In this document: positions 3,246-54,618 of the stretch, one piece after another
Layout of the letters: every line of letters begins with the position of its first letter
Position numbering within the stretch: the first letter of the stretch is position 1
Sequence record: OP292222.1
Direction: 5' to 3' (one strand)
From: Escherichia phage Esco_phi_B-01
Length of the DNA stretch: 64,000 bases
The notes under the pieces: model-generated
The model's input: only the letters and a program-made list of their open reading frames with translations
Databases searched by the model: none
Told to the model about the DNA's origin: nothing
Program-made: the position numbers and the translations under genes

Positions 3246-4253
3246 TTAATAAGGGAAACTAACCATTTTAACCAATATAGGTTTATTAGAATCTACACTG
3301 CGCCCGTGTTGAAATACCGTTATTTCTGAAATTGTTTTAGAACCCCATTCCTTTAAGGTTATATTAATAGGACGTAGCCCGTTATATGCCGCACTTACTA
3401 TAACAAATGAGCCTGTAGGAGACAAAGTCTTAGTTCCGCCACCGGTAGTAACCGTTCCACCCGAAACACTAGGAGCAACAAAGTGATAATCACAATATCG
3501 GGTAGTCCCACCTTTACTTAAAATGCTGTATTCTATTTGGTTGTTAACCAATCTAACTCTAAGAACCGTATTGGCGACCCCAGGTATTTTTATTTCGCCG
3601 TACCCAGCAGCAACGTTGGTATACTTATGGAATGAAAACAAATCTGTACCATCTTTACCAGGTTCGCCTTGAGGACCCTGAGGACCTAGAGGGCCAGTAG
3701 CTCCGTCAAGTCCATCAATCCCATCCACCCCAGGAGGACCTTGAACACCTTGCGGACCCTGCTCACCATCTTTACCCGGGATACCCTGTTCGCCTTGTGC
3801 ACCCTGAGAAGCCAATAAGGCCCAGTAAAGGCTGTTTTCTTCAGCAGGATTATTACCGGTAGAATCCTGAACGCAAAAATAAGAAGCCCCATTGTACCCT
3901 ACTGCATCATCCTTAACATAGGCTGTTGCAGCACTCCATGTTCCTTTCCAATTTAGACCCACAGGGCCTACAGGACCAGCCGGGCCTCTCGGTCCTACAA
4001 TGCTTTCACCTTTAGGGCCAGGGATACCAGGGGATAACATTTCTTCGGATATCCCCAAATGAGCCAGAACTTCAGCTCTTCCGGATTTACTAACCAAGCC
4101 TAAGCCATACGAATTACTCCCTACCAATCTTGCCGGGTTTATAAGACTTTCTTTAGTAAGAATTTTTTCAAAAGGGATAACAGTATCCGATTCCTTTAAA
4201 GCAATACCGGAAAAGGTCCCTCGACCGTCATGACCAAAAATAGAATCTGCCAT
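3246..4253 (-). CDS. Collagen-like repeat protein with embedded CBM5/12-like carbohydrate-binding motif
   Basis: 335 aa; Gly-X-Y runs (GIPGPKGESIVGPRGPAGPVGPVG and about 17 triplets GAQGEQGIPGKDGEQGPQGVQGPPGVDGIDGLDGATGPLGPQGPQGEPGKDG) flanking W..TAY..DAVGYNGASYFCVQ...W; GGAG RBS. Confidence 0.75.
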   Translation of the reverse strand: MADSIFGHDGRGTFSGIALKESDTVIPFEKILTKESLINPARLVGSNSYGLGLVSKSGRAEVLAHLGISEEMLSPGIPGPKGESIVGPRGPAGPVGPVGLNWKGTWSAATAYVKDDAVGYNGASYFCVQDSTGNNPAEENSLYWALLASQGAQGEQGIPGKDGEQGPQGVQGPPGVDGIDGLDGATGPLGPQGPQGEPGKDGTDLFSFHKYTNVAAGYGEIKIPGVANTVLRVRLVNNQIEYSILSKGGTTRYCDYHFVAPSVSGGTVTTGGGTKTLSPTGSFVIVSAAYNGLRPINITLKEWGSKTISEITVFQHGRSVDSNKPILVKMVSFPY

Positions 4254-5662: not shown

Positions 5663-5692
5663 AAAGGGACCTTACGGTCCCTTTTATTTTTC
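5663..5692. terminator. Bidirectional hairpin terminator between rnlB and gp24 paralog
   Basis: gggacc-ttac-ggtccc then T-run. Confidence 0.6.
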
Positions 5693-6964
5693 TAGTGGTG
5701 GAAGTTTAACACCAAGATAAGAACTCAACTGGCTTTGGTTAGCCATTTTGTCCATATCAGAGCCATCAATAATGCGGGCTTCTTTATCGTCCTTAGCGAC
5801 GGTATAAGGGTTTGCAGTCAATGCATAACGAGCAAGCAATGCTACTGTAGGTTGTAAGCTTTCCGGGTCAACAATAACCTTAAATTCACCTACTGAAGTA
5901 TCACCTTCTTCATCAACCACATCCAAACCTTCCGTATAAGGCGCATAATATAAAGATGCGACCGTCTGTCCTTCACCCATCTGGGCATTTACACCAACAA
6001 TAACATAATCACATGGACTATTCATATCAGCATAAAGAGGCAGACCATTCTTTAATACACCATAGGCCAATTCGTCTTGGTCTTCCTTTTTCTCAACCCA
6101 ACCGGAAGCGGCGAGAATAGCAGCACAACGAGAACTAGCTACTGCATAAGTCCCAGCGAAAGAAGTTTGACGTTGGACGGCAGAGTTCATCTCACACATG
6201 TAATAATATAATGTACGAGCACGGTCCTGGGCGTTATCGTAACGTGGGTTGGTAAGGTCTAATACACCTTTTTCAGAAACACCTTGGACTTTAAAACGAG
6301 AACTCACCGTAATTAATGACTGTAATACATCCTTATTAATTTCTTCTGCCATTTGGATGCCTAGCAGATTTTCAACGAAATTAGGAGCATTAAACCCGTT
6401 TGATTCTAGGTCCTGGGCTAATTCGACTGTCAATGAAGTTTTCAGTTTACGTGATTTAACTTCAGATTGCCATTTATCAATACGGAAGCCTGCTTCAGCA
6501 ATTTCAGGATGGCCTTGTTCGAATTTAGAAGTAATAGCAGCATCCGATACCATACGAATATGTCCGGCTGCCACTGCTTCAGAAATAACTTCACCGAGGT
6601 CGGTTTCTGTGGTTCCAGCGAAAGGAGATGCTTCTAGAACTTTAAACACCACACTTTCAAACTGGAACATATCGCCGGCTGCATAAGCTGTAGACGAATC
6701 GGCAAATTCAGGAATATTTTCACGTTCCGACATACCAATCTGGCCCGCAAATGTAGCACCACCAAGATAAGTCATTTTGTCGTCAGGGTTAAGTACACGA
6801 ACCCCGTACAGAGCAGCAACAGGTTGGCTTGTTTTTTGTTCAGCAACTAGGGCTTTAAAGATTCGTTTATTAGTTGCTTGGGTGTATGAAAGAAGAGCAG
6901 GACGGCCAACCGAGTTGGCAGCCGTCAATGTGGATTCTTTAATTAGGTCTATAATCTTAGACAT
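5684..6964 (-). CDS. Second gp24-family head vertex protein (diverged paralog)
   Basis: 426 aa; gp24/gp23 fold motifs shared with adjacent gp24 (RIDKWQSEVKSRKLKT, ELAQDLESNGF, EINKDVLQSLITVS) but strongly diverged. Confidence 0.85.
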   Translation of the reverse strand: MSKIIDLIKESTLTAANSVGRPALLSYTQATNKRIFKALVAEQKTSQPVAALYGVRVLNPDDKMTYLGGATFAGQIGMSERENIPEFADSSTAYAAGDMFQFESVVFKVLEASPFAGTTETDLGEVISEAVAAGHIRMVSDAAITSKFEQGHPEIAEAGFRIDKWQSEVKSRKLKTSLTVELAQDLESNGFNAPNFVENLLGIQMAEEINKDVLQSLITVSSRFKVQGVSEKGVLDLTNPRYDNAQDRARTLYYYMCEMNSAVQRQTSFAGTYAVASSRCAAILAASGWVEKKEDQDELAYGVLKNGLPLYADMNSPCDYVIVGVNAQMGEGQTVASLYYAPYTEGLDVVDEEGDTSVGEFKVIVDPESLQPTVALLARYALTANPYTVAKDDKEARIIDGSDMDKMANQSQLSSYLGVKLPPLEK

Positions 6965-8247
6965 TAATCAGCCTCGTAAATAATTGCTGGAAGTTTAACA
7001 CCAAGCAGATAAGACATATTACTCTGTCCGGCCATTAAATCCATATTGGTGGCATCGATAACACGAGCTTCTTTATCGTCTTTAGCTACGGTGTACGGGT
7101 TAGCGGACAGTGCATAACGAACCATCAGAGAAATAGAAGGCTGTAATGAATCCGGGTCGACAATAACCTTATAAGCACCAACGTGTTCTGGGTCGTCTAA
7201 ATCCAGGCCTTCTGTATACGGGGCATAGAAAATAGAACCGACAACTTCATTACCGCCATAGTTCTCTTTAACACCTACGATAACATAATCCAATGGGCTG
7301 TTAACGTCACAGAACAATGGTAATCCATTCAACAAATAACCATAGGCAGTTTCTGGGAGCCAATTATTATCTTCAGGTCTATGTTTTAACCAGCCAGAAC
7401 CTGCAAGCATTGCAGCCACACGACTTGAAGCCACAACAAACGTACCGGAATAAGAAGTAGTTTTCTGGATTTCAGAATTCATCTCACAAACAATTTCATA
7501 AAGTTTACGTGCAGATTCTGGAGCACTATCATAAGTCAAATCGATGATGCCATTATCAGATACACCCGTAACTTTATAGCGTTTAGATACGGTTATCAGA
7601 GATTGCAGAACGTCTTTATTAATTTCATCTGCCATTACTGTAGCCAGGAGGTCTTCTAAGAATGCAGGGGCGTCGAAGCCATTTGATTCCATATCCTGGG
7701 CCAATTCTACAGTCAAAGCAGTCTTCAATTTACGGGTCTTAACAGGAGCATTCCATTTATTAACCTGGAATACAGCATCAGAGATTTCTACATTACTCGC
7801 TTCGAATTTAGTGGTATGGGCTGCATCAGGAACCAGACGACATGTTAATGACACCAAACCTTCTTGAAGGGCATCAGCCAATCCTGTAGCGCTAGTGGAT
7901 GCGAGTGGGCTTGCTTGAAGAGCCTTATAAACCACATTCTGATACTTAAAGTAGTCACCCTTGGCAATCGCCTGGGCTTTATCTGTGAGTTCTGGGATAG
8001 TTTCACGGTCTTTAGAACCAACTTCACCACCATAAACAGCACCAGTTTGGAAACTGAATTCATTATCAGGGGTAAGATATTTGACACCGTACAATGCAGC
8101 AATAGGCTGACTAGTACGTTGTTCAGCGATGATATCGCGATAAATTAGTTTAGTGGTAGCACGGGTCAAAGCAACAAGATTAGGGCGACCCAATGAGTTG
8201 CTGGTAGTAGTTGTTGACTCGCGCAGTAATTCGTTAATCTTTGCCAT
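6964..8247 (-). CDS. 24: Head vertex protein gp24
   Basis: 427 aa; MAKINELLRESTTT... matches recalled T4 gp24; stop overlaps start of paralog at 6964. Confidence 0.9.
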   Translation of the reverse strand: MAKINELLRESTTTTSNSLGRPNLVALTRATTKLIYRDIIAEQRTSQPIAALYGVKYLTPDNEFSFQTGAVYGGEVGSKDRETIPELTDKAQAIAKGDYFKYQNVVYKALQASPLASTSATGLADALQEGLVSLTCRLVPDAAHTTKFEASNVEISDAVFQVNKWNAPVKTRKLKTALTVELAQDMESNGFDAPAFLEDLLATVMADEINKDVLQSLITVSKRYKVTGVSDNGIIDLTYDSAPESARKLYEIVCEMNSEIQKTTSYSGTFVVASSRVAAMLAGSGWLKHRPEDNNWLPETAYGYLLNGLPLFCDVNSPLDYVIVGVKENYGGNEVVGSIFYAPYTEGLDLDDPEHVGAYKVIVDPDSLQPSISLMVRYALSANPYTVAKDDKEARVIDATNMDLMAGQSNMSYLLGVKLPAIIYEAD

Positions 8248-8663: not shown

Positions 8664-10223
8664 TTAGATACCTTTAACATAAACGCGACGGAAGTAACCA
8701 TTCAGACCGAGGCTGTTAACGATGTCAGGCATACCGCTCTGAATACGTTTGGTAGGAGCCTGTGCAGACGGGTCAGCGAACGGGTTAATACCGATACCGT
8801 AACGAGTTTTGAAGCCCATTACCGGCTGGAAGTTCTTCGGATCGGAACCGCGCAGTGGGGTAAGTGCAACGTAAGGAGCGTAGTAGATACCTGCGTCCAT
8901 TTCGTTGGAACCTTTATAACCGATGGTGAAGTAATCAGCACGGGCATACTGGTCGATGTAAACGCGATATTTACCACCAAGAACACCGGCAAATACTGCT
9001 TTAGTGGTGTCAACGTTGAAACCTTGACCCAGACCTTGAGCTGCATAACTTACAGAAGTATCAACTGCAGCCAGTACGTTAACTACGTTACGGGAAGCGA
9101 TGATGAAGTTACCAGCACCACGACCGGTCTGACGAGCGATTTCGGCTGCTTCTTTATCAATCTGGAACAGAAGGGCTTTAAAGCTCTCACCGGCCCAACG
9201 AGCACCACGGATATCAATCGGGTCCTGGAAGTCAAACACACCAGCTTTAGCGCCAACGGTGTTGGTCATACCAGATTTACCAACCTGTGCAGAGTAGTTA
9301 ATCCAATCGATAACTTCACGGTTGATTTCGAGCATAATTTCGGTAGCAAGGATACCGGACAGTTCAGCATCTGCATCCATACCGTGTACTGCACGAAGGT
9401 CCTGTGCCAGTTCGATGGAATAGCTTGCTTTCAGCTGACGGGATTTAGCTTCGATAACTTGTTTATCGATACGGAAGCCCATTTCGTTCCACGGGTTATC
9501 CTGAGAACCGTTAAAGCCTTCCTGAAGTTCAGCGATAGAAGTAGCCATACCTTCAGCCAATTCAGCCAGCTGACCAGCTTCCAACAGAGCAGTTACGGCA
9601 ACATCCAGTTTAGCGGCATCAGTAGCAGCAGCATCAACGGTTACGGCTTCAACAGCCTGGAAGTGTGCAGCACCGGTAGCTTCGAAGAAGTGAGAATAAA
9701 TTTTACCAACTTCCAGAACTTTACCTGCAGCCAGTGCTTCAAAAGTCTGAGCAGCGCCCTGACCAGAGAACATAGCGTTCGGAGCATACATCGGGTGGAA
9801 AGCTTCTTTAGCGCCAGCAGCGATAGGGTCTTTACCGTATACTGCACGCAGTGCAAATACCTGGCCGGTAGGGTTATTCAGAGGCTGAACACCACAAATA
9901 TCAAAAGCAATCAGATGAGGAATAGCACGACGAACCATACCCATTACTGCCGGCCCAATCTGAGTTACAGCACCAGAGGTCTGGCCAGCTGCGATATTGG
10001 TAGCATCATAACCGTGGTCACCACCGATTTCAGCTTCGGTCAGGAAAGAACCAAATGCTTCAGAGATTTTTTCGTCACGATATTCAGGAGCGGTCAGAAT
10101 ATCTTGTTCCTGGTTTTCGAAAATTTTAGCGATGATAGCTTGTTTAGAAGCACCAACGATTTCAGGAAGAGCTTCGTTTTCCAGCAGAGCGGACCATTTT
10201 TGAACTAATGCATTCTTTTTCAT
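8664..10223 (-). CDS. 23: Major capsid protein gp23
   Basis: 519 aa; long stretches identical to recalled T4 gp23 (AEIGGDHGY..., QIGPAVMGMVRRAIP, DNPWNEMGFRIDKQVIEAKSRQLKA). Confidence 0.97.
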   Translation of the reverse strand: MKKNALVQKWSALLENEALPEIVGASKQAIIAKIFENQEQDILTAPEYRDEKISEAFGSFLTEAEIGGDHGYDATNIAAGQTSGAVTQIGPAVMGMVRRAIPHLIAFDICGVQPLNNPTGQVFALRAVYGKDPIAAGAKEAFHPMYAPNAMFSGQGAAQTFEALAAGKVLEVGKIYSHFFEATGAAHFQAVEAVTVDAAATDAAKLDVAVTALLEAGQLAELAEGMATSIAELQEGFNGSQDNPWNEMGFRIDKQVIEAKSRQLKASYSIELAQDLRAVHGMDADAELSGILATEIMLEINREVIDWINYSAQVGKSGMTNTVGAKAGVFDFQDPIDIRGARWAGESFKALLFQIDKEAAEIARQTGRGAGNFIIASRNVVNVLAAVDTSVSYAAQGLGQGFNVDTTKAVFAGVLGGKYRVYIDQYARADYFTIGYKGSNEMDAGIYYAPYVALTPLRGSDPKNFQPVMGFKTRYGIGINPFADPSAQAPTKRIQSGMPDIVNSLGLNGYFRRVYVKGI

Positions 10224-10244: not shown

Positions 10245-11060
10245 TTAAGAAATTCGAGATGCTGCGATTGCAGACAGGTCCGCGAAGGACAGGGTAGGCT
10301 TAGCGCCTTTTTCTTCAACTGCTTCCGAAATATAATTCAGTGCTGCAGCATCGTCTTCAGTTTTATTTATAGCGGCTTCGGTGATTGGTTTTTCAACGTC
10401 AGTCTGGCCTTTAACCATTTCAACGATAGCGCCAATTTTTTTACCAAATGCATCGGAATAATCCATGCCTTCTACCAGAGAACTAACTTTTTCTTTCTGA
10501 GATTCAGTCAGGTCTTTAGTTGCTTCAGTCAACGCAACTTCACGCTGTACGTAATTAATATATGCGTCACGCTTACCAACTTCTTCGAACAGACGAGCGG
10601 TTTCATCTTTCTGCTCTTGGAGTTCTTCTTCCATTTCAGCAACAACATCCACTGCTTCTTCTGGAACAACCACATTGTGTTCAACAAACAGTTCTTTCAT
10701 ACCCATCAACATGGATTCGAACAGTTCGGCTTTAATACCTTTATCAACAGCCAGCTGGTTTTCAGCCATCCATTCTTTAGCGACGTGGTCAAGGAAACGA
10801 CCGGCAGCTTCTTGGATTTTCTTATCAGCTTTTTCTTCAGCTTCTTCTTTATTTTTCTCAACTTCTTCTTCCGCTTTTTCAGCGATTTTAGCGATGTGAG
10901 ATTCAGCCAGTTTAACGGCGTGTTGCTTGACGGTAGCTTCGAATACAGTGCCGAAAGTTTCTTTTGCTTCCGGAGAAATATTAACTGATTCGAAAATACT
11001 GTCAAGAGCAACGGAAGCATCAATATTCTGTGCTTCGGCAATCAGTTGTTCTTTAAGCAT
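10245..11060 (-). CDS. 22: Prohead core scaffold protein gp22
   Basis: 271 aa, acidic coiled-coil, between gp21 and gp23. Confidence 0.85.
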   Translation of the reverse strand: MLKEQLIAEAQNIDASVALDSIFESVNISPEAKETFGTVFEATVKQHAVKLAESHIAKIAEKAEEEVEKNKEEAEEKADKKIQEAAGRFLDHVAKEWMAENQLAVDKGIKAELFESMLMGMKELFVEHNVVVPEEAVDVVAEMEEELQEQKDETARLFEEVGKRDAYINYVQREVALTEATKDLTESQKEKVSSLVEGMDYSDAFGKKIGAIVEMVKGQTDVEKPITEAAINKTEDDAAALNYISEAVEEKGAKPTLSFADLSAIAASRIS

Positions 11061-11090: not shown

Positions 11091-11726
11091 TTATAACGCT
11101 TTTTTCATGGCCTCTGCGAGAGCCATAAAGGCGTCATCGGCACTGGTATCGGTATCTACCGTTTGTGATTCTGTAATTTGTTTAGGAGTTACATAAGCAT
11201 CAGGAGCAGATGGACCCCATACTGCATCAACACCGACGGTTAATTTATAACCTTCGTTTACACGCTTATATCCTTTATTGGTTTCGGTTAAAGAACCTAG
11301 ACCACGAGAACTAACACCAGGCACCCAACCAGCTCTAATATTAGCAGCTAGTTTATCACCAGGACCATGGTCGCCTTCAATAATACGAGCACGTCCATAA
11401 ACGTCATTACCTTTCCACCACATATCTTCAATAATAATAGCGGCTTGCATAGGGTCGACGTTAGCACGAGGCGGATGATTTAATTCTCCTAAAGCTTGTT
11501 TAGTAGCAACCTGTTCTGCCATATAATCGGCAACAGCTTTTTCCAAAATAGGTTTTGGATAAAGGCGTTTATTACGGTTAACCACTTCGGCTTGCATGAA
11601 TATGCCTTCTATATAAAGGCCCGGGGCAAGTCCAGAATCTTTTCCATCATGAGATTCCAACATCGGAACCCCATCGATAATTTCACCTGGTTGTCCCCAA
11701 TGTTCGATGAGCAATTCAGGTTTCAT
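11091..11726 (-). CDS. 21: Prohead core protease gp21
   Basis: 211 aa; matches recalled T4 gp21 (GEIIDGVPMLESHDGKD, NHPPRANVDPMQAAIIIEDMWWKGNDVYGRAR). Confidence 0.95.
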   Translation of the reverse strand: MKPELLIEHWGQPGEIIDGVPMLESHDGKDSGLAPGLYIEGIFMQAEVVNRNKRLYPKPILEKAVADYMAEQVATKQALGELNHPPRANVDPMQAAIIIEDMWWKGNDVYGRARIIEGDHGPGDKLAANIRAGWVPGVSSRGLGSLTETNKGYKRVNEGYKLTVGVDAVWGPSAPDAYVTPKQITESQTVDTDTSADDAFMALAEAMKKAL

Positions 11727-12154
11727 TAGTTAAGTCCAAAGGCTTTACGTTTAGAACGAGCTTTCTTACGCTTACGTTCAGCACGTACTTGAGTAGACGG
11801 GTTAGCACGTTTGGTTTTAGACGCTTTGCGAGCGATCTGACGGCGTTTTGCTTTAGACAACCCAGTCGTTTGATAAGCGTTGCGTTGACGGGTTTTAATA
11901 TCTTTAGTACGAGTAAGCTCACCTTTAGAAGAGACGTGCTTAACGATAAATTCGTTAAGAGCCATATTTTCATTCAAAGAGGCAATGGCAATAGCTGTAT
12001 CGATATCACCATCAGCAATCATGTTCTCTACAAGATTATTTATATCGCTTTTCTCGAGGGCTTCAGAAAGAGTAGCAAAACGTCCCTGTGCTTCTGGAAT
12101 TTTGGCCTCTACGCTTTCTAGAGTTAATTCGTAATCATCAGGGATAAGGAACAT
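11726..12154 (-). CDS. 68: Prohead core protein gp68
   Basis: 142 aa; position between gp67 and gp21; basic C-terminus. Confidence 0.7.
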
Positions 12155-41163: not shown

Positions 41164-42062
<899 letters not shown>

Positions 42063-42080: not shown

Positions 42081-42335
42081 ATGAAAACTTACTCTGAATT
42101 TTCTGAAAAATCTCTAACTGAATCCTCACATGGTATGGAAGTAAAACTTGGTACGGCTTTGGCTGAAGCCGAACGTTTGTTCGCGCGTATTAAAGAACTT
42201 GCTGATTCTGTTGACCCGGGTTCCTTTAAAGGTGACCAGACTAAAGTTAAAGCTCTTTTGGCTCTGTGTTCTGATGCCGGTGAAATTGCTAAGAATGGCT
42301 CTAAGATGAAGAAACGTCTGGAAGACCTAAAATAA
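42081..42335 (+). CDS. Internal (capsid-targeted) protein, CTS-bearing
   Basis: 84 aa; N-terminal MKTYSEFSEKSLTE. Confidence 0.6.
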   Translation: MKTYSEFSEKSLTESSHGMEVKLGTALAEAERLFARIKELADSVDPGSFKGDQTKVKALLALCSDAGEIAKNGSKMKKRLEDLK

Positions 42336-42347
42336 TTTAAAAAAGAT

Positions 42348-42395
42348 GTTTACAAGGTCTATAGGCATGATACTATAGACCTATCAAAACAAACT
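42348..42395 (+). promoter_or_regulatory. PeSL-type early promoter
   Basis: GTTTAC, 17 bp, TACTAT, AGACCTATCAAAAC; palindrome ggtctatag/ctatagacc spans the -10. Confidence 0.55.
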
Positions 42396-42413: not shown

Positions 42414-42638
42414 ATGAAAACTTATCAAGAATTTATTACAGAAGCTAAAAAGCACGAAGACCAGCTGCCGGTTGTTACAAAAACCTTTGATGGTACACTG
42501 GCCGATTTTAAAAAAATCCCTAGTGATAAACTTGCTAAATTGACCGGAAGCATCAGCGAAAAAGATGGCAAGGTTACGTTTTCTGCCCAAGGCACCGCCA
42601 ATCTTAAAAAACTTTTGAAAGCCGCTGGTGCAGAATAA
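42414..42638 (+). CDS. Internal (capsid-targeted) protein, CTS-bearing
   Basis: 74 aa from MKTYQEFITEA (track ORF starts 12 nt earlier). Confidence 0.6.
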   Translation: MKTYQEFITEAKKHEDQLPVVTKTFDGTLADFKKIPSDKLAKLTGSISEKDGKVTFSAQGTANLKKLLKAAGAE

Positions 42639-42646
42639 AAATAATT

Positions 42647-42700
42647 GTTTACAACGGGCCTTAGTGATGATACTATAGCCCTATCAAAACAAATGAGTGA
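42647..42700 (+). promoter_or_regulatory. PeSL-type early promoter
   Basis: GTTTAC, 18 bp, TACTAT, AGCCCTATCAAAAC. Confidence 0.55.
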
Positions 42701-44381: not shown

Positions 44382-44550
44382 AACAAGAAACCGGGTCGCT
44401 ACCGGTAAGTCGTCGGACTGAAGTTCCCTGAATAAGACCCGACTTTAAGGAGTACATGAGTTCCTCTTAAAGTCCCTTATCTCACAGCTGAAACGGCGCA
44501 CAGAACACTTGCCTAGCAGGTGGAACCCCGACAAGGTTACCCTAGGTTAA
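44382..44550 (+). ncRNA. Candidate small stable RNA downstream of the tRNA cluster (analogous position to T4 stable RNA species)
   Basis: About 170 nt non-coding, several short hairpins, ends at terminator; no ORF. Confidence 0.3.
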
Positions 44551-44551
44551 A

Positions 44552-44579
44552 GGCCCTTCCGAAAGGTTGGGCCTTTTTT
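44552..44579 (+). terminator. Intrinsic terminator ending the tRNA/small RNA unit
   Basis: ggccc-ttccgaaaggtt-gggcc then TTTTTT. Confidence 0.6.
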
Positions 44580-44580
44580 G

Positions 44581-44588
44581 TATAAATA
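44581..44588 (+). promoter_or_regulatory. Late promoter TATAAATA
   Basis: Exact TATAAATA 27 nt upstream of ATG 44615. Confidence 0.45.
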
Positions 44589-44614: not shown

Positions 44615-45169
44615 ATGAAACTTTTAAAATATTTGAGTTGGATTCTGTTGGTCCCACTAGATTTTATCTCTATGGTTCTGGCTGTTATCCTTGCACCTTT
44701 TGTAGTTCCTTTCCACAATAAAAAGACTGGTAAATTGCCATACGGTTTTGATTGGATGATGACATACGATAATCCAATTGACGGTGATAAAGGTCATATT
44801 AAACGTTGGGCTAAAATCAGGAAAATGCCTGGTGGTGTTTATCTCCAGAGAGTAGCTTGGCTATGGCGAAATAAAGCTTATAACTTTGCTTATCATAAAC
44901 TAGGACGTGATTGTAGTTCAGAATTCCATTATCGTGGTAATCCTGACGTAGAATCAGGTTCTCCTGATAAAGCCCACCATGGTTGGTTATGGATGTGGAA
45001 TGATGATGCCTGGGGTGTATTTGCTTCAGTTCCTTATCTTAAGGTCGGCGGAATCACATTTTACCTTCGCGTGTACTGTGGATGGAAGCTTAAGAGCCTT
45101 TTGTCTCGTAAAATCCCTAAAGCTATGTTAGCCTTCCACGTGAACCCGTTCCGGTTCTACAAGAACTGA
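44615..45169 (+). CDS. Hypothetical protein with N-terminal transmembrane segment
   Basis: 184 aa; Trp/His-rich; AGGAAA RBS. Confidence 0.55.
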   Translation: MKLLKYLSWILLVPLDFISMVLAVILAPFVVPFHNKKTGKLPYGFDWMMTYDNPIDGDKGHIKRWAKIRKMPGGVYLQRVAWLWRNKAYNFAYHKLGRDCSSEFHYRGNPDVESGSPDKAHHGWLWMWNDDAWGVFASVPYLKVGGITFYLRVYCGWKLKSLLSRKIPKAMLAFHVNPFRFYKN

Positions 45170-45176
45170 TTTACGG

Positions 45177-45203
45177 CCCTTCCGAAAGGTTGGGCCTTTT
45201 TGT
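45177..45203 (+). terminator. Intrinsic terminator (second copy of the 44552 hairpin)
   Basis: Same ggccc-ttccgaaaggtt-gggcc hairpin and T-run. Confidence 0.55.
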
Positions 45204-45210
45204 ATAAATA
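45203..45210 (+). promoter_or_regulatory. Late promoter TATAAATA
   Basis: Exact TATAAATA 29 nt upstream of ATG 45239. Confidence 0.45.
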
Positions 45211-45238
45211 GATAAGTTAATTAACACAGGAAACAATA

Positions 45239-45862
45239 ATGAAAACTTACAATGAATTTTTGAACGAAAGCGTTCTGAGTGAAGCCGGCTTGCGCATGAC
45301 TAAAGATATGTGGCAAGCTGCTTATGATAAAATTTCCGGGACTAAAACCACTACCGAGTTCTTTAAAAACGTTTATGATATGTATGGTTTTGATACTAGT
45401 AGCCAGAAAGAATATTACAAAGCTTCCAAAGCTTTTAAAGATATCGTAGCCGGTGGCGCTACTAAGCCTGCTAAACCAGCTAAAGCTCCTGTTGCTAAAC
45501 CTGCAGCCCCAACCAAAGTTGCACCACCTAAACCTGCTGCAGCGCCTAAAGCAGAGCCTGTAAAAGAAGCTCCTAAATCTAAAATCAAGTTTGACACCAC
45601 TACTATTGTTAAAAAATATAACCAGCTGGCTTCTTTGGTTTCTGAAATCGAAACTGAAACTAAACATCTCGTTCGAGAATTCAACGCTCTTCGTAACGGA
45701 CAGCACATTAACAACCTAGATACCCCAGACCTTTATCGCCTCTATCTGACGGTTGAAGGCCTTAAGTATACCCAGCCTATGCATGAAGAAATTGATAACA
45801 AACTTCGTCAAGCCCGCCGCCTTGCAGGTGACGCAGCACAGTTCGAAAAGACTCGTAAATAA
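45239..45862 (+). CDS. Internal-protein-like capsid-targeted protein with Pro/Ala/Lys-rich linker
   Basis: 207 aa; N-terminal MKTYNEFLNES CTS-like; low-complexity PAKPAKAPVAKPAAPTKVAPPKPAAAPKAEP. Confidence 0.6.
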   Translation: MKTYNEFLNESVLSEAGLRMTKDMWQAAYDKISGTKTTTEFFKNVYDMYGFDTSSQKEYYKASKAFKDIVAGGATKPAKPAKAPVAKPAAPTKVAPPKPAAAPKAEPVKEAPKSKIKFDTTTIVKKYNQLASLVSEIETETKHLVREFNALRNGQHINNLDTPDLYRLYLTVEGLKYTQPMHEEIDNKLRQARRLAGDAAQFEKTRK

Positions 45863-45866
45863 TGAA

Positions 45867-45884
45867 AGGAGACTTCGGTCTCCT
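45867..45884 (+). terminator. Hairpin terminator
   Basis: aggagac-ttcg-gtctcct then TTTT. Confidence 0.55.
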
Positions 45885-45921
45885 TTTAGGGGGTTTAGAC
45901 CAAAAATAATTTCACAAAGTT

Positions 45922-45975
45922 GTTTACACCTCCTTTAAACATGATACTATAGACCTATCAAAACAACAGTGTGAA
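45922..45975 (+). promoter_or_regulatory. PeSL-type early promoter
   Basis: GTTTAC, 17 bp, TACTAT, AGACCTATCAAAAC. Confidence 0.55.
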
Positions 45976-54021: not shown

Positions 54022-54618
54022 ATGAAAACGTATAAAGAATTTATCACCGAAGCTACTGCAGGAAAGGTCAAAGGCATTAATAAAGATGAGTGGACTTACC
54101 GAGGAAACGGTGTTGACCGCATAGGAAACGGCTTTGACGCTAAAACAGCTCCTATTGAACGATACTTAGCTACAAAGGCTTCCGACTTTAAAGCTTTCGC
54201 TTGGGAAGGACTTCGCTGGCGTAACGATTTGAATATTGAAGCTGATGGACTTAAATTTGGCCATATTCAAGATGTTGTTGCTAGTAACTTAGACTCGGAC
54301 TTTATTAAAGCTGATGAATCCCTTCGTCGCTGGAATTTAAAACTGTTCTCTAAACAGAAAGGTCCGGTGTTTGTACCTAAAGCAGGTAAATGGACTATTG
54401 ATAATAAATTGGCTAAGGCTGTCAACTTCGCCGGACTTGAATTTGCCAAGCATAAATCAGCATGGAAAGGTCTTGATGCAATGGCTTTTCGTAAAGAATT
54501 TGCCGATGTTATGACTAAAGCCGGCTTTAAGGCAGAACTAGATACCTCTAAAGGTACGTTTAAAGACGCTAATATTCAGTACGCTTACGCCGTTGCTAAT
54601 GCAGCCCGTGGTAATTAA
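54022..54618 (+). CDS. ipIII: Internal protein III-like capsid-targeted protein
   Basis: 198 aa (T4 IPIII 193); N-terminal MKTYKEFITEA CTS; adjacent to e as in T4. Confidence 0.55.
   Translation: MKTYKEFITEATAGKVKGINKDEWTYRGNGVDRIGNGFDAKTAPIERYLATKASDFKAFAWEGLRWRNDLNIEADGLKFGHIQDVVASNLDSDFIKADESLRRWNLKLFSKQKGPVFVPKAGKWTIDNKLAKAVNFAGLEFAKHKSAWKGLDAMAFRKEFADVMTKAGFKAELDTSKGTFKDANIQYAYAVANAARGN

Follow-up and report, generated by a model that had tools for sequence, protein, structure and literature searches.

A putative late-expressed internal head protein with two helical domains and a cationic linker in a JS98-like T4-type phage

The 207-amino-acid (aa) protein encoded at positions 45239 to 45862 (+) of the window, which here means the whole 64,000-nucleotide stretch of DNA analyzed, is probably an internal head protein of the T4 type, synthesized late, packaged by means of a capsid targeting sequence (CTS), trimmed by the gp21 protease, retained with the DNA in the head, and ejected. 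An earlier note had described an ORF of 207 aa starting with MKTYNEFLNES and bearing a CTS. The ORF was confirmed at these positions on the plus strand, all mapped determinants of the T4 CTS are present in its product, and the cognate gp21 protease and gp22 scaffold are encoded in the same window. The family corresponds to PHROG 2280, which carries no annotation, and the CTS reading and the domain anatomy are new for this PHROG.

Gene, family, and locus

Over the 1.8 kb around the gene, identity is 95% to Escherichia phage JS98 and 90 to 95% to other Dhakavirus genomes, and the sequence places the window in Dhakavirus, in a JS98-like T4-type phage. The gene order is that of the T4 map from genes 4/2/3/1/57A/57B to denV. 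Gene 57B is followed by a cluster of small CTS ORFs, trna.4, trna.3, trna.2, three tRNAs (Met, Asn, and Arg), and the 207-aa ORF, on the 3' side of which lie e.8, e.6, and more genes up to nudE, lysozyme e, an IPIII-like gene, and denV. The locus is within the 57B-to-denV region, the home of other internal-protein genes. The head genes occupy the left part of the window on the minus strand and include two tandem genes for gp24-like vertex proteins (5684 to 6964 and 6964 to 8247), gp23 (8664 to 10223), the gp22 scaffolding core protein (10245 to 11060; phrog_237), whose N-terminal 75 residues are almost identical to those of T4 gp22, the gp21 prohead protease (11091 to 11726; phrog_207, head maturation protease), which is 89% identical to T4 gp21, and gp68 (11726 to 12154). 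Both tandem gp24-like proteins have a protease-type site at residue 10 (IKE/S and LRE/S).

The coding sequence starts with ATG and specifies a protein of 23.3 kDa (pI 9.5) whose N-terminus reads MKTYNEFLNESVLSEAGLRMTK. The ORF is the orthologue of JS98 orf135 (EpJS98_gp135), and its product matched PHROG 2280 with an E value of 3.2e-58, residues 1 to 202 aligning with positions 1 to 178 of the 178-position profile. Substitutions relative to JS98 numbered 7, 3, and 21 at codon positions 1, 2, and 3, respectively, and this bias, together with the conservation of the protein down to ~33% identity, indicates that the ORF is a real gene. Two antisense ORFs (45221 to 45706 and 45415 to 45714) were rejected as mirror images of the low-complexity coding strand; the codon-position bias favors the plus frame.

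Five ORFs in the window start with MKTYxEF (69, 84, 74, 198, and 207 aa). The 207-aa protein, previously called large, is the longest of the five, but it is only slightly longer than the IPIII-like one. The IPIII-like gene (54022 to 54618) is the orthologue of T4 IPIII, and the three small CTS ORFs of 69, 84, and 74 aa (41853 to 42062, 42081 to 42335, and 42414 to 42638, respectively) lie at the classical ipI locus between 57B and trna.4. Three of these four further ORFs match PHROG families that carry an internal head or virion protein annotation; two of the three are small ORFs, and the 69-aa ORF corresponds to phrog_23867, which is unannotated.

Orthologues were found in about 140 to 190 phage genomes (143 to 189 records), which span at least seven T4-type genera. 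In each of them the gene occupies the same locus and is annotated as hypothetical; T4 was not among the matches listed in these searches. An exhaustive profile search of 1.8 billion representatives returned 14 proteins only, suggesting that the family is narrow and has no annotated distant relative. Pfam, NCBIfam, and PADLOC gave no significant match, only a sub-threshold match to the COMP coiled coil and an irrelevant low-complexity match, and nothing was found by a sequence profile search of the PDB. No function emerged from the fold and profile searches; the former returned only generic helical hairpins, so that any activity in the host can be put forward purely by inference.

RB69 (NC_004928; positions 3429 to 3991 of the extracted locus, minus strand) carries a divergent allele at the same locus (ORF149c, MKTYAEFLTEA...), which a frameshift in the reference record divides between ORF149c and ORF148c; the frameshift reflects either a sequencing error or a pseudogene. 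In fHe-Yen9-01 (positions 2080 to 2616 of the extracted locus), a gene for a protein of 178 aa, gp153, is located directly 3' of the orthologue. This protein has a CTS-type start (MLEYSEFLKE...) and its own AKP-rich stretch near residue 78, and neither domain of the 207-aa protein has detectable similarity to it.

Domain build, targeting sequence, and likeness to internal proteins

Two domains separated by a flexible linker had been proposed for the protein, and the AlphaFold2 predictions agree with this, giving confident helical domains (pLDDT, 80 to 93) and a disordered linker (pLDDT, 33 to 46). The N-terminal domain (residues 16 to 72; 45284 to 45454, +) carries a conserved ERMTKxKWQ motif and was modeled, using the family alignment, with helices at residues 22 to 30, 38 to 49, and 56 to 71 (pLDDT, 82 to 87). 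The C-terminal domain (residues 117 to 207; 45587 to 45859, +) has three helices, at residues 121 to 152, 163 to 176, and 179 to 205 (pLDDT, 80 to 93), and is the most conserved part of the alignment (FDTS..KKY.QL...LVRE..LRNGQ..NNL.TPDLY.LYL). Residues 73 to 116 (45455 to 45586, +) form a polycationic Pro/Ala/Lys-rich linker of 44 residues, with 11 Pro, 13 Ala, and 10 Lys and a net charge of +8, in which residues 74 to 111 account for the low pLDDT values; the linker quoted in the earlier note, PAKPAKAPVAKPAAPTKVAPPKPAAAPKAEP, was found inside this segment. The predicted mature protein was computed to have about 192 to 197 residues, roughly 21.5 to 22 kDa, and a pI of 9.6 to 9.7.

Domains are exchanged among the relatives on either side of the linker: (i) P0023 and P0027 keep the CTS, the N-domain, and the linker and have unrelated C-domains, and (ii) in P0026 and P0028, the C-domain is retained and follows a different N-domain. 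These swaps confirm the predicted modular build. In 19 relatives, the linker is 24 to 50 residues long and not conserved in sequence, and its net charge is always +3 to +9. That the charge is retained while length and sequence drift points to selection acting on charge and speaks against a neutral spacer. An origin of the linker from a DNA tandem repeat was also considered and set aside; the linker-coding DNA holds only a weak trace of a 9-nt repeat in 2.6 copies.

A variant of the internal head protein reading, possible but in our view doubtful, is that the protein works as a histone-H1-like polycation that neutralizes or organizes the head DNA, with the helical domains serving only for oligomerization. 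A lysine at every third to fifth residue in a Pro/Ala context recalls the KPAA/PAKKA-type DNA-binding tails of the H1/AlgP type. The constantly positive linker in all 19 relatives is in line with this, and in the T4 head, internal proteins are reported to touch DNA phosphates through their lysines (PMC3012670). However, the folded domains, especially the NNL.TPDLY loop of the C-domain, are far more conserved than an oligomerization module needs, the C-domain has given way to unrelated domains in some relatives, a pattern seen more typically where effectors diversify, and Pro/Ala-rich stretches are also common as inert spacers.

The putative propeptide (45239 to 45283, +) consists of the CTS MKTYNEFLNE (residues 1 to 10) and a stretch ending in a second protease-type site, LSE15/A. 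The N-terminus fits M-K-T-Y-x-E-F-[IL]-x-E, the form of the CTS in T4-type internal head proteins, and compares with MKTYQEFIAE at the start of T4 IPII and IPIII. In T4 IPIII, the first ten residues suffice for packaging, of foreign proteins included, and mutagenesis has assigned residues 4 and 7 to targeting and residues 8 and 10 to processing (PMC9026906). The 207-aa protein carries Y4, F7, L8, and E10, which is every determinant mapped in IPIII, and in the family these positions are occupied by Y or F, F (I in a few members), L, I, or V, and E, respectively. Across 19 relatives, M-x-x-[YF]-x-[EDQ]-[FI]-[LIV]-x-E is retained, with a second [LIV]-x-E-[AS] after it; in some of them the two protease sites have merged into one, and none of the 19 lacks both. 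E15-A16 is invariant in an alignment of ten family members.

There are only two [LI]xE sites in the 207-aa protein, LNE10/S and LSE15/A, both within the first 15 residues, and they resemble the conserved maturation sites of gp23 (LTE/A) and gp24 (LRE/S) in the window. The protease sites are thus confined to the predicted propeptide, so that a stable mature protein would remain after cleavage. By comparison, gp22 has 15 to 16 [LI]xE sites. This difference bears on another explanation, namely, that the protein is a prohead-core or assembly accessory like gp67, gp68, and gp22, which would enter the scaffold by its CTS, aid head assembly or size determination with its coiled-coil-like C-domain, and be broken down or expelled ahead of DNA packaging without ever being injected. 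Such an accessory could have a late promoter, as structural genes do, and the long helical bundle of the C-domain, the weak COMP coiled-coil match (E value of 0.006, below the cutoff), and one BFVD match named scaffolding protein, with a nonsignificant E value of 0.9, would suit it. However, two N-terminal protease-type sites contrast with the 15 in gp22, which is degraded to peptides, and the protein has no profile similarity to gp22 (hhalign probability, 0.2%). Since T4 is not among the matches listed and the reference record shows a frameshift in the RB69 allele, the protein cannot be an essential part of assembly, and the site numbers together with the dispensability of the gene make a degraded scaffold accessory improbable.

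Outside the leader, the protein stands apart from the known internal proteins. The hhalign alignments covered residues 1 to 25 only with IPIII and residues 1 to 11 only with IPII, and beyond approximately residue 25 the mature part showed no detectable similarity to IPI, IPII, or IPIII, which indicates that the protein is not a member of any of these three families. The mature parts of the T4 internal proteins are themselves unrelated to each other, and homology does not define the class (PMC3012670). The similarity to IPIII extends past the 10-residue CTS to about residue 25 (INKDEWT versus MTKDMWQ; 45239 to 45316 of the window compared with T4 ipIII) and hints that the leader and the first helix could have been acquired together from an IPIII-like gene. 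At the DNA level, the ribosome-binding site and the CTS-coding stretch belong to a diverged repeat (family D2) that covers the first ~40 nt of the gene and recurs at the three small CTS ORFs (41843, 42071, and 42404).

These same observations, the repeat shared with other CTS ORFs and an IPIII similarity that suggests a recombinational origin, could also mean that the protein is a late cytoplasmic one that is never packaged and owes its CTS resemblance to recombination with an ip gene, but a fossil leader is quite unlikely because the CTS determinants and the L/I/V-x-E/A or S site are kept down to ~33% overall identity in numerous genera, including relatives in which the N-domain is otherwise replaced, whereas an unused leader should have decayed, and in T4 ten residues alone package foreign proteins (PMC9026906).

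The proposed internal head protein is close to IPIII (193 aa in T4, and its orthologue in the window), which shares the CTS, the protease site, the size (198 to 207 aa), the basic character, and the location in the 57B-to-denV region but has neither a Pro/Ala/Lys linker nor a two-domain helical build. IPI is likewise CTS-led, protease-trimmed, nonessential, and highly variable. Its propeptide is longer than 10 residues, and the tandem LNE/LSE sites suggest that this could also be the case for the 207-aa protein; propeptides of internal proteins have 10 to 19 residues (PMC9026906). The processed form, IPI*, is an injected inhibitor of the GmrSD restriction enzyme (PMC3012670, PMC9391042) and consists of a single compact alpha/beta domain of 76 residues, whereas the family described here is all-helical, with two domains in about 192 to 197 residues, and no sequence or fold match to IPI* was found.

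Expression signals and repeated cassettes

The gene had been described as preceded by a terminator and an exact late promoter of its own. A hairpin resembling an intrinsic terminator, GGCCCTTCCGAAAGGTTGGGCC with a T-run, is present at 45175 to 45201 (+; -15.3 kcal/mol, z -2.9); its stem-loop (GGCCC-TT-CC-GAAA-GG-TT-GGGCC at 45175 to 45196) is followed by TTTTT and was presumably missed by a simple terminator scan because of the internal 2x2 loop. An exact T4-type late promoter, TATAAATA, is located at 45203 to 45210 (+), 36 nt before the ATG, and a ribosome-binding site, AGGAAA, at 45228 to 45233 (+), 5 nt before it. On the 3' side, a UUCG-looped hairpin (45865 to 45886), together with a short T-run, was identified at 45865 to 45890 (+; -15.2 kcal/mol, z -3.4), and a similar hairpin lies 3' of the gene in JS98, HX01, CHI14, and Clarke_MM3. 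The upstream hairpin would insulate the gene from upstream transcription and the downstream one would end its transcription unit. The promoter, the ribosome-binding site, and the flanking hairpins suggest that the gene is a self-contained, hairpin-bounded late transcription unit.

On the plus strand of the 64 kb, TATAAATA was seen six times, with ~4.2 copies expected per strand, and five of the six copies are 31 to 41 nt upstream of an ORF start. As the count alone is not significant, the evidence for the promoter is its position and conservation. The exact motif is kept 27 to 36 nt upstream of the orthologues in JS98, HX01 (Mosigvirus), fHe-Yen9-01 (Tegunavirus), and PG7 (Karamvirus), and versions with one mismatch precede those in Clarke_MM3 and CHI14; thus, it is exact at five of seven orthologous loci from different genera and has one mismatch at the other two. 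A hairpin precedes the late promoter at every orthologous locus compared, despite differing surrounding sequence. T4 late transcription units have TATAAATA at about -10, 25 to 40 nt before the start codon, and the motif before the 207-aa ORF agrees with them in its distance from the ATG and its conservation.

Early-type matches (GTTTAC...TAnnnT) were found upstream of T4 ipI, ipII, and ipIII and of at least two other CTS ORFs of the window (42414 and 54022), and no TATAAATA occurs within 110 nt upstream of the T4 ip genes or the other CTS ORFs of the window. The IPIII genes therefore have an early-type promoter match and no late promoter, whereas the sole promoter of the 207-aa gene is a late one that follows a terminator. 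This contrast suggests an expression pattern unlike that of the classical internal proteins.

The late promoter belongs to a duplicated stem-loop cassette. A second copy (44547 to 44588, +) precedes the gene for a DUF7338 protein (44615 to 45169; 184 aa) and comprises an exact 22-nt copy of the hairpin (44552 to 44573; zero copies expected by chance) and a second TATAAATA at 44581. With its own late promoter and a hydrophobic N-terminal segment, the DUF7338 protein appears to be a late-expressed, membrane-associated accessory protein. The two cassette regions (44547 to 44588 and 45170 to 45210) were compared with positions 570 to 730 and 1370 to 1512 of the loci extracted from CLB_P2 (Dhakavirus) and HX01, respectively, which have a single cassette and no DUF7338 gene. 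The junction falls inside the cassette, and in CLB_P2 the left flank matches the first copy in the window and the right flank the second, indicating that the DUF7338 module, 623 bp long, is an indel with the cassette at its borders. The module is present in the window, JS98, and MN04, absent from CLB_P2 and HX01, and probably absent from dhaeg, dhabil, and IME08 (69% query coverage in two pieces).

This arrangement looks like a late-promoter analogue of the shuffling mediated by PeSL, a repeated intergenic stem-loop with an early promoter that flanks accessory genes and acts as a recombination site (Arbiol, Comeau and Krisch 2010, PMC2839356). Both systems have a repeated stem-loop and promoter cassette bounding an accessory-gene indel, but the cassette before the 207-aa gene contains TATAAATA instead of a sigma-70-type early promoter and falls outside the PeSL definition for that reason. 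The definition does fit a cassette found by a promoter scan downstream of the gene (45897 to 45966, +; GTTTACA...TG.TACTAT), which is located before e.8, would drive its expression, and may mark the right border of the module. It belongs to repeat family D1, whose copies in the window (42323 to 42392, 42623 to 42692, and 45897 to 45966) are 63 to 84% identical and precede the 74-aa CTS ORF, trna.4, and e.8, respectively. The D1 copies consist of an AT-rich stretch, GTTTACA, a TG-extended TACTAT, and ...CTATCAAAACAA, and a closely similar sequence precedes ipI in T4.

Virion data and proposed role

In a related T4-type Klebsiella phage, a protein starting with MKTYQEFLNES (10 of 11 residues identical) was represented by 66 spectra from CsCl-purified virions. 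In the published table, the only occurrences of TYQEFLNESR are within the 66 printed protein sequences, and the next tryptic peptide occurs three further times, a pattern that removal of the propeptide would produce. No family peptide or sequence string was found among the entries listed in the virion mass spectrometry supplement for ValerieMcCarty, a phage that may lack the gene or carry a variant, and a literature search found no paper mentioning the locus tags or accessions of the family. The proteome and toxicity data for phiR1-RT were discarded as irrelevant because fHe-Yen9-01 is the only Yersinia phage with the gene. For the 207-aa protein itself, we infer packaging, cleavage, DNA contact, ejection, and host activity.

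As an internal head protein, the 207-aa protein would be produced as follows. Transcription would take place only late, from its own TATAAATA between the two hairpin terminators, so that the protein would appear while proheads are being built. MKTYNEFLNE would tie it to the gp22 scaffolding core, and activated gp21 would cut after Glu10, Glu15, or both, removing a propeptide of 10 or 15 residues. As there is no other L/I-x-Glu site, a basic mature protein of 21.5 to 22 kDa would survive in the head, where the lysine-rich Pro/Ala linker would probably rest along the packaged DNA, serving as counter-ion or tether. At infection, the mature protein would leave the head with the DNA, and, once in the new host cell, its helical domains would most plausibly counter a host defense, as T4 IPI* does, or might alternatively act on the phage DNA itself. 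The protein could thus have an effector or a DNA counter-ion role, and a role in the host is suggested by the analogy with IPI* and IPIII. The domain swaps and the allelic diversity, including the RB69 allele, fit a defense-related arms race, and the conserved cationic linker fits a DNA-associated role, which does not exclude one in defense.

A broader interpretation, which we offer tentatively and consider less probable than not, is that the family is a modular delivery chassis for injected effectors, in which the CTS would load the protein, the cationic tether would ride on the DNA for early co-ejection, and the helical domains on both sides of the tether would be exchangeable and directed against different first-line defenses of the host. 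The swaps in P0023, P0027, P0026, and P0028 and the RB69 allele would then be traces of an arms race, and the stem-loop and late-promoter cassette would be the late-gene counterpart of PeSL, moving modules between T4-type phages.

Diverse CTS-led internal proteins have been known in T4-type phages for decades, and this unannotated family adds to that kind. The features worth recording are the late-only control from a repeated cassette, the two-domain build on a polycationic linker, and the natural exchange of domains. The combination of a CTS motif and a protease site offers a rule by which internal proteins can be annotated, and the duplicated late-promoter cassette suggests that cassette-mediated shuffling extends to late-expressed accessory genes too. 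The flexible cationic linker and the tolerance of domain swaps are relevant to the engineering of T4-type heads for protein delivery. Of all phage proteins, internal proteins arrive first in the host cytoplasm, and two of them are already tied to overcoming host defense: IPI*, which counters GmrSD, and IPIII, which is required on strain ECOR17 (PMC3012670, PMC9391042). Members of the family, carried by many therapeutic-type coliphages as well as by phages of Klebsiella and Enterobacter, are candidates for an injected anti-defense or DNA-protecting factor.
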